From Glaucostegus cemiculus (Eukaryota), in NCBI GenBank assembly GCA_976551045.1, contig CDPCPM010000060.1:3782001-3846000 (forward strand): a DNA stretch of 64,000 bases, read 5' to 3'. The stretch's first letter is position 1. Each line of letters opens with the position of its first letter. The position numbers and the translations under genes are program-made. This document shows, piece by piece, positions 39,330-56,600 of the stretch. Under the pieces are notes generated by a model, which made no database searches, was not told the origin of the DNA, and worked only from the letters and a program-made list of their open reading frames with translations.

Positions 39330-39545
39330 ATGGACAGAGGAGTTATCTCCTGTCCTGGCCAATATTTATTTCTCTACACTTTAGTATTACATGGCAATAT
39401 TTTTAATCAACCTCATTAAAACAAATTATCTGGTCAATATCATGTCACTGGTTGTGAAAGCTTGTTATGGGAAAATTACCACACTATCCATGCTTTAAGG
39501 TACTTCATTGCTTGTAAAGTGCTTTGGGTCTTCCTGAGGTCCCAA
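39330..39545 (+). mobile_element. DeuSINE (SacSINE1/AmnSINE-like) 3' fragment
   Basis: TGTCCTGGCCAATATTTAT...ATTATCTGGTCA...GTACTTCATTGCTTGTAAAGTGCTTTGGG. Similar to 54555-54960. Confidence 0.7.
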
Positions 39546-52450: not shown

Positions 52451-52824
52451 TTAGCCTATTACAATATACTTCCTGATAGAGTAGTGGAAGAAATAATCCT
52501 GGGACCATTTAAAAAGCAATTGACTGCTGAATAGGATGGAAGAGCAAAGATAGGGCCAAATGGCTATCCCTGTCTGAAGAATGCAGTGCAGGTCAGTATT
52601 CTTGGGCAAAATGTTAAACTCCTCAGAAGTCATAAAAATGGCAATGTGCATTACTGATATCATGAAATAGTTGTCCCAGACAGTAATTATCTGTATGGTA
52701 TTATAAATGGTAATAATGTTTAGTTATTAGGTAAATAAGTTATGTTATCCAATATTTTGGGACTTTAGCAAAAATATATTCGTTGACTGTACTTGCTAAC
52801 AAACCAGTATTCATCTGTGCATAG

Positions 52825-53128
52825 GCAACAGCCTCAGATTCCAATCACTACGGCAGCAGGTGTAGTGTATCCTGGTGCCATCTCAATGGCAGCCACAGCA
52901 GCGTCACCACAACTGACATCTGAGTGTTCCAGCGAGTCCGGCAGCCCAGAACCAAGCATCCCAGTCATCCAGAGCACTTACAGCATGAAGGGAGAAAGTG
53001 GCAACCTGGGCGTGAATGAAATGATGAATGGCGAAGATGAAATGGAAATGTATGAGGACTACGAGGATGATCAGAAATCAGACTATAGCAGTGACAATGA
53101 GAATCAGGAGGCCATCAGTGCCAACTGA
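52825..53128 (+). CDS. sox6: Sox6 terminal coding exon (QQPQIPITT...EAISAN*)
   Basis: Acceptor gcatag|G with branch-like ttgctaac upstream. 304 nt to TGA. The C-terminus (NGEDEMEMY...SAN) identifies Sox6 rather than Sox5 or Sox13. Confidence 0.96.
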
Positions 53129-53701
53129 GCAGCAACTGCAATCAGACTCTTTGAACAAAAAAAGTTATTGATGAGCCTGCATGTGTGGCTCCAACAGATT
53201 CATCAGCAATGGTCTTAACTGTTTCTTAATGTGTGAAGCATTCTGATTTGTTTTTTTTAATTTTTACAAAGTATCATGGACATTTTACATTACTGGCTAC
53301 AGTCTGAAAACACAAAAAAAATTAAAACATCAGGACTTGAAAGCTGTTGCTTAATATAAATTCATAGCTATCTGGCAGTCTTAATTTTTTTTCCTTTCTC
53401 TTTTTTGAGCTTGTTTTCAAATGCTTTAGTTACTGTTTCTTAAGGGGCGGGGGGTTATATTCTCACTCAGGTATGCTGTGCCAACCAGCAACTTGTGAAT
53501 GTGTTTTTAATCTGAACTATTTAAAATAATTTAAATTTCGTAGTTTTGAAAAGAAAGTTGGGGATGGGGTGGGGGGGTGGGAACCAAAATTAAAATAGCA
53601 GCACATGTGCACAAAAAGCACAGCATAAAGCAAACAACAAAGAGCTGAGCCCTGACTGGCTTTCCTTTATTTTTTTCTTTTTTTCTTTTTGATTTGCATA
53701 T

Positions 53702-53718
53702 TGTACAGTTTGAATAAA
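53702..53718 (+). terminator. Candidate proximal polyadenylation signal
   Basis: TGTA at 53702 followed by AATAAA at 53713-53718. The downstream GU-rich element is weak. Confidence 0.35.
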
Positions 53719-53722
53719 GAAA

Positions 53723-53730
53723 GTGCCAAA
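53723..53730 (+). promoter_or_regulatory. miR-96 8mer site (GTGCCAAA); further 7mers at 53478 and 57309
   Basis: Seed matches to miR-96 (UUUGGCAC). Confidence 0.5.
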
Positions 53731-53796
53731 CATCTAACAACATTTTAATCTTAACACTCTGAAAAGTCTTACATGGGAGACACTGCAAAAGTCTTA

Positions 53797-53803
53797 GACA
53801 ATC
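53797..53803 (+). promoter_or_regulatory. miR-219-5p 7mer-m8 site (GACAATC)
   Basis: Seed match directly abutting a miR-499 site. Sox6 is an established miR-219 target in oligodendrocytes. Confidence 0.65.
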
Positions 53804-54554
53804 GTCTGTGATTTAATGAGGATAAAAAAAGTATATATAATTACACTTACAAAATGGGTCTCTCCAGACAGCAGTGAAGTTACTCAGGAATATGGAAAAG
53901 GATTTTTTTTGAGACAGAGGAGGAGCTTGCCAGAGTGCATGTGTCCCATAATTTTGTTTTAAACACTTGATTGTGCACAAATAGGGTGTTCAACAGTTAT
54001 TCGTCAGTGCAGGCCACACAACAGACAGCTGTCCCAGTTGTCTTCTTAGAATGGTTTCTTACCCTTTACCTCATTACGCTGAGTTCCAGTGAGAGTATTT
54101 TAGTCATTCCAGAGATCCAAGGGGCCAATAATCTAGGATTATTGAATTTAAAGGAAAACACTGGGGGTGGTTGGGGAAATGTTCTTAAATATTTAAAATT
54201 GTAGGGCAAAATTGTGACTCAAAACCATGGATATTCTGTTCAGTAAAGAAAACTTCCATCATAGCAGCATAATCTGCAGTCTGAACAGGAATAATTTATT
54301 AGTCACTCAGAGACAATGCCCACCTCCTTAGTCCCACCCCAACCTCCCCTCCTCCAATGTCAGCCCAATACCAGTTACATCCCGTCACCAGAGTCACTAA
54401 AATTAAAATGGCTATTCTCAGTTCAGCTTTGAATGGACACGGTTGAGCTAATGGAAGAATAGAGGGAGAAACAGTGAGCGAGAGAGAGAAAAAATTGGGG
54501 AATGTGGAGGAGGGGTCCTTAATATTGCCTTTGACATGGTCTAATTAACTCTAG

Positions 54555-54960
54555 GAGTGTCAGCTATGGCTTAGTTGAGAGTACTATTGTCTCTGAGCAC
54601 AACATTCTAGTCTGACTACTTAGTACAGTACTGAGGGAGTGCTACACTGTTGGAGGTGCTGTTCTTTGATGGCAACCTCAAAAAAGGTCCTGCCTTCTTT
54701 CACAAGTGAATATTAAAGAAAGATGATGAGTATGGGATTTATCCCTCTCATTTTTGGCCAATATATTAATCCCTGAATCAATATTATAAAAGCAGATCAT
54801 TGGATCATGAATATTTGTGGCATCTTTCTGCGCACAGTGGCTTGCTGTGTTTCCTATTTCTACAGTGACTGCATTTCAAAAGTACTTCACTGGCTGCAAT
54901 GTACTTTAGGGCAGTTTGAATAGGACATGAAAGATGCCATATAAATGGAAGTCTTAAGTC
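54555..54960 (+). mobile_element. Near full-length DeuSINE (SacSINE1/AmnSINE1-like) inside the putative 3'UTR
   Basis: Deu-domain motifs CAGTACTGAGGGAGTGCTACACTGTTGGAGGTGC, TGGCCAATAT, TTCAAAAGTACTTCACTGGCTG and the tail TGAAAGATGCCATATAAATGGAAGTCTT. Confidence 0.8.
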
Positions 54961-55921
54961 TTTCCAAGAGTCTTATCTACCATTCAATGGTGTTAAATGA
55001 CATTACTTAAAACAATTCCATTCCTCTCCACTGTTGGCATTCACCTTGATGAGCACAAATGGGACAGGGATAGGGTGGGAGGAAATTGAATACTAATGAC
55101 TTAATCTACTTAATTTCACAATGTCTTAATTCATCTACTGCATTACTGTGAAAATGACATATACTAAGGTCTTAAACGAAATTTGGTGTGCAGGAAGTAA
55201 ATGGGGTTTATCAAAAATATATATAGCACAGATGAACAAGAAATGAAGTTCATCTCCAAAAACATACCCTGCATACTCAGATTTCCTGTCTTAAATACAT
55301 AATGGGTACTACAAAATTAAAACAGCCATTACCTAGTTAAGAAACTACTGTTGTTGGTATGTGGATTTGAGACAATAAATTGGGGAAATACAAACTTTTC
55401 AGAAATGAGGCAGAATTCTGCTCTTTATTTAAAGCCCCATTGAATAGTGAAGTTCCATTATTTAATCTTGGACCAGTTTGATTTAGACTGTGATAATTTA
55501 GTTGGAACATCTTGCAAATGAGAATAACTGATGAACACTTTGTTTCTTTTGCAAATCATTCAAGGTACTGATAATATTTCATTCAAAAAAACAAAATATT
55601 TGAACTTTAAATCTGGCTACAATGAGGGAGGGTGGGAGGAGTGAGGGATTGGTTCTGAAATCTTGCATAATCATAATTTATTAAAGTTCATATAACCTCT
55701 TACTAATAAACAGCTCCCCTCAACTGTTTTATTTTTAAAATTCAGTTTTACTTAGGACAGTGTATGCCATTTAGTTTGAGAGTACAATTTGTAGTTTATA
55801 TTTCATTGCACCCACACGTTTCGTTTTTTTAGCTGTTTTGTTGCCATGCCAATATGATATAATGCAGGCTGGTGGGAAAACAAAGGACTGTTTTTTGGGA
55901 CTGAAACTTGATTATGCTTGT

Positions 55922-56008
55922 AGTGTGTGTATGTATGTATTTTATATATATATAATATATGTAATATGATACACATACACACATACGGACACACACATTT
56001 ACATGCTC

Positions 56009-56041
<33 letters not shown>

Positions 56042-56062
56042 TTCACACACATACGCACACAC
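55922..56062. repeat. Imperfect (TA)n/(CA)n microsatellite in the 3'UTR
   Basis: Seen directly. Confidence 0.9.
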
Positions 56063-56600
56063 AGGATGTTTTAAAGTGTTATGAGCACTGGATATAAATG
56101 ATATTTTTTATCACTTCTGACTAATGTGAAACTGTTTTAAGAGATATTACATGAACAAAAAGCCGCCTGTAAAGACTCGTGTGGGCCTGCCTCACAGTTG
56201 CCAGATTTGAGTCATTTTATGTCTAGTAATTTTATTTATGCAAAAAAATGTTATGTATGAATACTTTGTTTTAGCTCCATCCAAATCTACCTTTTCCCCT
56301 CATTTCTGTTATCCTTACCTACCTTCATTTCTATGTCCTCCTTTTCTCTTTCTCCCCTCATTCACCAACACCCCACTCCACCCCCCCCAACTGATTCCCA
56401 ACAAAATACTTTGTTTTGTACCTTGACCATATGCTCTCCCACTTGATTGGCTAAACAAACAGCAACCTTATTTTTTTCAATGGTCTTAATTATCTTTTTG
56501 TAAATTGTATTTGAAAGTTGACTAGATCAAATAAATGTTTGTGTAATATTTATTAGCCGAAATCAGGCTCTAAAATATCATTGCAGAGTTATTCTACCAA

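Follow-up and report, generated by a model that had tools for sequence, protein, structure and literature searches.

A sense-oriented SINE in the 3'UTR of Sox6, which ends beside two predicted miR-499 sites, raises the question of whether a retroposon supplied a muscle gene with microRNA sites that were then put to use. The locus lies in a 64,000-nucleotide stretch of Glaucostegus cemiculus DNA, which was analyzed as a whole and is called the window below. All features described in it lie on its forward strand.

miR-499 sites in the Sox6 3'UTR

The window contains the final six coding exons of Sox6, as located by tblastn of named SOX-6 proteins. The gene is identified as Sox6 by its last exon (52826-53128, with the stop codon at 53126-53128), whose identity to most of the named SOX-6 proteins of sharks and rays is 97-99%; in comparison with those of catshark, sawshark, skate and chimaera, identity is 87-94%. 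The 3'UTR extends from 53129 to 56550, its end being placed from an AATAAA at 56530. One miR-499 gene is found in the genome by Rfam (RF00745, 75.6 bits), while Rfam yielded no matches in the window. The mature miR-499 sequence was taken from the genome's own gene, and its seed fits the AGTCTTA heptamers.

The UTR has ten canonical miR-499 sites where 0.45 would be expected; with the SINE and the site at 54969 left out, eight remain and the expectation is 0.35. No canonical sites occur on the antisense strand of the UTR. Across the 64-kb window the heptamer AGTCTTA is not enriched (10 seen, 10.7 expected), whereas the UTR is strongly enriched with or without the SINE, and its top non-repeat hexamer is the miR-499 match. 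These values indicate the UTR is a strong predicted target, as the original prediction held in stating that the SINE had landed in a genuine miR-499 target. The sites comprise a 7mer-A1 at 53212-53218, an 8mer at 53377-53384, 7mer-m8 sites at 53765-53771 and 53790-53796 (the latter with the strongest predicted pairing, -19.5 kcal/mol), the two at and just past the SINE tail discussed below, three 7mer-A1 sites downstream of the SINE (55123, 55169 and 55288, spanning 55123-55294), and a 7mer-A1 at 56483-56489, near the inferred UTR end. Two of the ten are 8mers, at 53377 and 54950.

Seven miR-499 sites are described in the mouse Sox6 3'UTR, of which three are conserved and reporter-tested (PMC3770584), and a tilapia study gives four Sox6 sites as conserved across vertebrates (PMC4368118). 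The ray UTR resembles this system in the number of its sites and in that two of the mouse sites map onto it: two of the three printed primers for the reporter-tested sites map to 53762-53803 (0/200 shuffles each), matching the sites at 53765 and 53790. None of the three maps to the SINE. For the third mouse site, the best match (55276-55293) was equalled by 4/200 shuffles and is too distant from the other two for the 720-bp fragment, and this site was left unplaced. The difference from the published system is one extra 8mer at the SINE junction; the tests presented in the available portions of these two papers cover no cartilaginous fish (PMC3770584, PMC4368118).

In the first 650 bases past its stop codon, a SoxD paralogue in this genome (locus L164, G000:C48, minus strand) carries a single 7mer-m8 and a pair of 8mers matching miR-499. 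We take this paralogue to be Sox5-like. Its sites fall in the same alignment columns as 53377, where it has a 7mer-m8, and 53765, where it has an 8mer, and it has a 6mer at 53790. A 49-base UTR block is common to both genes (E 8e-10), and no copy of the SINE family was found within 6 kb of the paralogue. Given these same columns and common block in a SINE-free paralogue, the proximal Sox6 sites likely predate the gene duplication, and miR-499 control of SoxD may itself predate it. The literature includes a paper titled on a miR-499/SOX5 axis.

In L126, a metagenomic sox6 locus of bony-fish type, the UTR has six GTCTTA matches and no match to the SINE family. A further locus, L127, stops within the exon and yielded no UTR. 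The 53212 site is retained in L126, those at 53765 and 53790 are lost, and a four-site cluster lies further on (L126 5240-5313, 5787-5932). As judged from these predicted sites, miR-499 sites in the Sox6 UTR turn over. The 49-base block (window 53459-53507; L164; L126 5004-5057) is 84-88% identical among Sox6, the paralogue and the bony-fish sox6, which have further motifs in common at 53721 and 55887-55906.

The SINE copy and its 3' junction

The stretch at 54558-54955 is a multi-copy repeat, with 40 scored matches in the genome. A family consensus and profile were made from other copies in the genome, the window copy being left out. The window copy, which has a tRNA-type head, aligns in sense orientation to this consensus at 305/387 bases (79% identity, i.e., 21% divergence). 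This alignment and the Sox6 exon map confirm that a sense SINE lies in the 3'UTR, as had been proposed. The B box is missing from the head, where 41 bases are deleted between 54593 and 54594, and the A box is decayed. The family consensus has both boxes by the usual A and B box patterns, a tRNA-like head and a relaxed ARAGORN call. Given the lack of an intact A or B box, the window copy is likely dead as a Pol III unit. Rfam yielded no tRNA match in five decayed SINE copies.

The family is dense, with 55 copies in 607 kb of DNA not selected for copies. We take it to be SacSINE1-like, i.e., a DeuSINE, with a presumed Deu-domain likeness to AmnSINE1 and LmeSINE1. Like such elements it is old and very abundant in a cartilaginous fish, has a tRNA-type head and a length of about 460 bases, and its copies are about 70-80% alike. 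Its size, age and host fit the SacSINE1 description in PMC5499810, the comparison being with that description and not with the published consensus, to which SacSINE1 copies are given as 74-75% identical (PMC5499810, PMC4824008). The available portions of both papers describe enhancer exaptation (AmnSINE1) and make no mention of microRNA sites.

The family tail reads TGCAAGTCTT followed by T, and ten of its bases are complementary to miR-499 nucleotides 3-12. The window tail reads TGGAAGTCTT, then a second AAGTCTT, then the family-type T. The result is a 7-nt doublet, AAGTCTT AAGTCTT, at the SINE 3' junction (54949-54962; units 54949-54955 and 54956-54962), which is the sole such tail in the genome and one among about 400 exact tails. 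The 8mer at 54950-54957 arises, on this reading of the letters, at the doublet junction and not by substitution. Hence the original prediction that the tail is one substitution away from a site describes the family, whose tail is one base from a 7mer-m8, but not the origin of this site, which the doublet made.

The letters on which that prediction was based are found at 54940-54975, with AGTCTTA at both 54950 and 54969, and the SINE had been taken to end in both sites. The 8mer indeed uses SINE letters. The 7mer-m8 at 54969-54975, however, is past the end of the alignment to the family, which falls at 54955 (54963 by profile). The predicted duplex of the 8mer (-14.5 kcal/mol) is mid-range among the ten sites, and that of the 54969 site (-9.3 kcal/mol) is the second weakest. 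The family tail would pair at -16.0: the window copy has a G where the family has a C pairing miR nucleotide 10, and this weakens the pairing. The G variant is present in 33 exact tails, and among the 30 that were fetched only the window copy has A next.

The family tail across the genome

It had further been suggested that the SINE family could seed miR-499 sites genome-wide. A related reading is that tail and miR-499 are of common origin, like mammalian L2-derived microRNAs. The ten-base complementarity speaks for either, since it is equalled by 0.3% of shuffled microRNAs, and so do the 24 exact tails that carry a 7mer, five of which are 8mers. A match at the 0.3% level would, however, be expected about once over a few hundred microRNAs, and the counts that follow make both readings very improbable.

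After the 369 exact tails, T follows 275 times, A 24 times and G 13 times, which by subtraction leaves 57 tails with C. The frequency of A against G fits base composition (p=0.51), and thus there is no enrichment of A after the tail. These counts cover the exact tails of the whole genome, those in sense in UTRs being pooled with the others. In 16 of the 24 A-tails the sequence continues pyrimidine-rich, as expected after a T-to-A change, which indicates the one-substitution route does occur. A family profile match is found at 64/81 tail-anchored loci and at 20/24 A-tail loci; since it is missing at some, the exact-pattern tail counts include some decayed or unrelated matches. As to an L2/CR1 partner LINE with the same 3' tail, 43/81 tail-anchored loci match the 3' part only or nothing of the SINE profile. 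The DNA upstream of such loci has scattered repeats in common, but in the 30 pairs listed no LINE end is clearly shared.

In unbiased DNA, 3/24 tails retain AGTCTT and none carries a miR-499 site. Scaled up roughly to the genome, the tails would number 113,000 and their sites about 900, compared with about 356,000 AGTCTTA heptamers genome-wide, a tail share of roughly 0.3%. Other miR-499 sites near the 24 A-tails are found 6 times on the same strand and 14 times on the opposite one. Seven further gene ends were covered, 10 kb each. Three are of the PurA family, two of the FNIP family (stop codons not located) and two SoxD; none has a site-bearing tail. The Pur and Fnip genes were chosen as presumed miR-499 targets. 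The suggestion of seeding in bulk does not survive these results: A after the tail is no commoner than composition predicts (24/369, p=0.51), unbiased tails yield 0/24, and the heptamer share is minute.

An origin of miR-499 from the SINE was likewise rejected. The miR-499 locus has no SINE profile match, and alignments of the hairpin with the family score at chance level (142/500 and 68/500 shuffles).

Target sites derived from L2 elements are known in human 3'UTRs (PMC6433296, PMC7913837). The ray SINE is like these in that a retroposon 3' end in a 3'UTR serves as a predicted microRNA site. In the L2 case, as far as these sources describe it, the element yields the microRNA itself and its consensus is a target in many genes. 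Here, by contrast, nothing points to a SINE origin of miR-499, and only rare copies carry a canonical site, which the family consensus lacks. In the literature searched, which excludes most subscription journals, no title or abstract opening ties DeuSINEs to miR-499; one review contains both terms.

The junction in relatives and competing explanations

Sequencing runs of relatives bear on the age of the insertion and on its place in transcripts. None of the runs contains more than 0.43 of the words, so all are from relatives, and 4 of 24 were compared over 52800-55900. The insertion is common to two relatives about 10% diverged, F and H. In relative F (run X17), one contig spans 53594-55900 at about 90% identity, SINE included. 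Its sole two breaks, at 54683-54753 and 54859-54956, are both inside the SINE. At the second, the 98 bases drop out of an 80% alignment with both flanks retained, 93 other letters standing in their place, and the alignment resumes at 54957, after seven of the eight letters of the 8mer; the two broken parts, one of them the SINE tail, are thus the least conserved in the compared UTR. Since an intact 8mer would likely have aligned, we infer from this break, and not from the letters, that the 8mer is absent or altered in F. In relative H (run X20), one unbroken contig covers 53599-55664 with 181 differences. By depth arithmetic, the bin that contains both sites is covered at 102-104 of its 104 places, and this near-full coverage, again as opposed to letters, suggests the doublet's length is old and was kept in H. 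Relative B (run X22, raw reads) gives thin one-orientation cover of 24/30 bins, up to 55900, and its reads in SINE bins are mostly from other SINE copies. Run X18 contains only other SINE copies, the Sox6 locus being absent.

A separate contig of relative F has a loose end that is the end of the upstream exon. This junction indicates run X17 holds spliced RNA, despite its automatic "probably DNA" label. The exon-joined and the SINE-spanning contigs are similar in depth, and no single record bridges the stop codon and the SINE. Hence, on the evidence of the relatives, the insertion is old and the SINE is likely included in a long mRNA isoform, where the original prediction had placed it; the 8mer itself is conserved to a mixed degree.

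The relatives also bear on a reading in which the SINE landed on an older site cluster, the second AAGTCTT and the 54969 site being target DNA and the likeness of tail to target having guided the insertion. The resumption of the F alignment at 54957, as if the conserved flank began there, is consistent with it. In the SINE-free bony-fish UTR, the collinear interval contains the four-site cluster, which a global alignment pairs in order with the sites after the SINE, including fish AGAGTCTTA with 54967-54975. Slippage on tail repeats has been described for an L2 element (PMC3747384). However, 111/500 shuffles with motifs fixed and spacers shuffled score as well, and orthology of the fish cluster with the distal sites, suggestive by eye, is not significant. 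In addition, no target-site duplication above chance is found at the SINE (145/200 shuffles as good), and simple microhomology would presumably leave one unit, not two. We consider an older cluster quite unlikely. The fish cluster aligns slightly better to the proximal region of the window's Sox6 UTR (7/500 shuffles) than to the distal one.

We regard it as moderately probable that the locus holds an old, dead SINE with a doublet-made 8mer that is likely redundant beside the nine other predicted sites, of which several are likely far older. Under this explanation, the SINE tail would by coincidence have contributed six of the seven bases that match the seed, and one slippage or duplication event at the junction would have completed the 8mer. 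miR-499 would bind this predicted site in slow and cardiac muscle, adding little to the repression exerted by the proximal sites, and the 8mer would be kept weakly or not at all. Weak selection may act on it.

The alternative is true exaptation, in which the doublet-made 8mer was fixed and selected and strengthens miR-499 repression, in some shark and ray lineages, together with the 54969 site 19 bases away, a spacing that suits cooperative microRNA binding. The best argument for selection, and for guided insertion, is the low neutral chance at this locus: a site-bearing sense tail in the Sox6 UTR is expected with a probability of about 0.0005 (0.07 sense tails per UTR length x 0.8%, by rough arithmetic). 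Also counting against redundancy, the rare doublet fell in a UTR whose top hexamer is the miR-499 match and which is plainly enriched for such sites; the 8mer is one of only two there, and its doublet length is kept in H. On the other hand, a given canonical site occurs in any stretch of 400 bases with a frequency of 5%; with a sense-copy chance of about 15% and perhaps a hundred heavily targeted UTRs (a guess), one such coincidence per genome is expected. The tail region is among the two parts dropped from the F alignment, non-seed pairing is weaker than that of the family tail, and nine other sites are present. Exaptation is thus unproven and, on sequence evidence, unlikely. A more specific version, in which the doublet-completed tail is a selected 8mer that tunes both Sox6 and the type of muscle fibre in some lineages of sharks and rays, possibly with tail likeness having steered the insertion into this site cluster, must be called unlikely.

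Should the 8mer be under selection, it would offer a datable instance of an ancient SINE contributing to the myomiR-Sox6 circuit of cartilaginous fish; it would also give a post-transcriptional role to a superfamily whose known uses are mainly as enhancers. If the guided-insertion reading is true, sites for a microRNA would be able to draw in further sites that reinforce them. On present evidence, the locus illustrates, locally, how the end of a retroposon can add a further site to a UTR already rich in them, and the view of the circuit is unchanged. The seed of miR-208 is related to that of miR-499. In cartilaginous fish, miR-208 is reported absent (PMC4177693).

Three further observations were made. 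A short Sox6 isoform could end at an AATAAA at 53713, just upstream of the sites at 53765 and 53790, and would escape eight of the ten miR-499 sites; contigs of the relatives continue through this AATAAA, and in relative F a base differs three letters ahead of it. In a Sox6 intron, at 39330-39540, lies another sense fragment from this SINE family, with an end that lacks a miR-499 site. Finally, a 33-base tandem array at L122 7051-7444 has a unit that weakly resembles an internal segment of the SINE (model positions 132-163).
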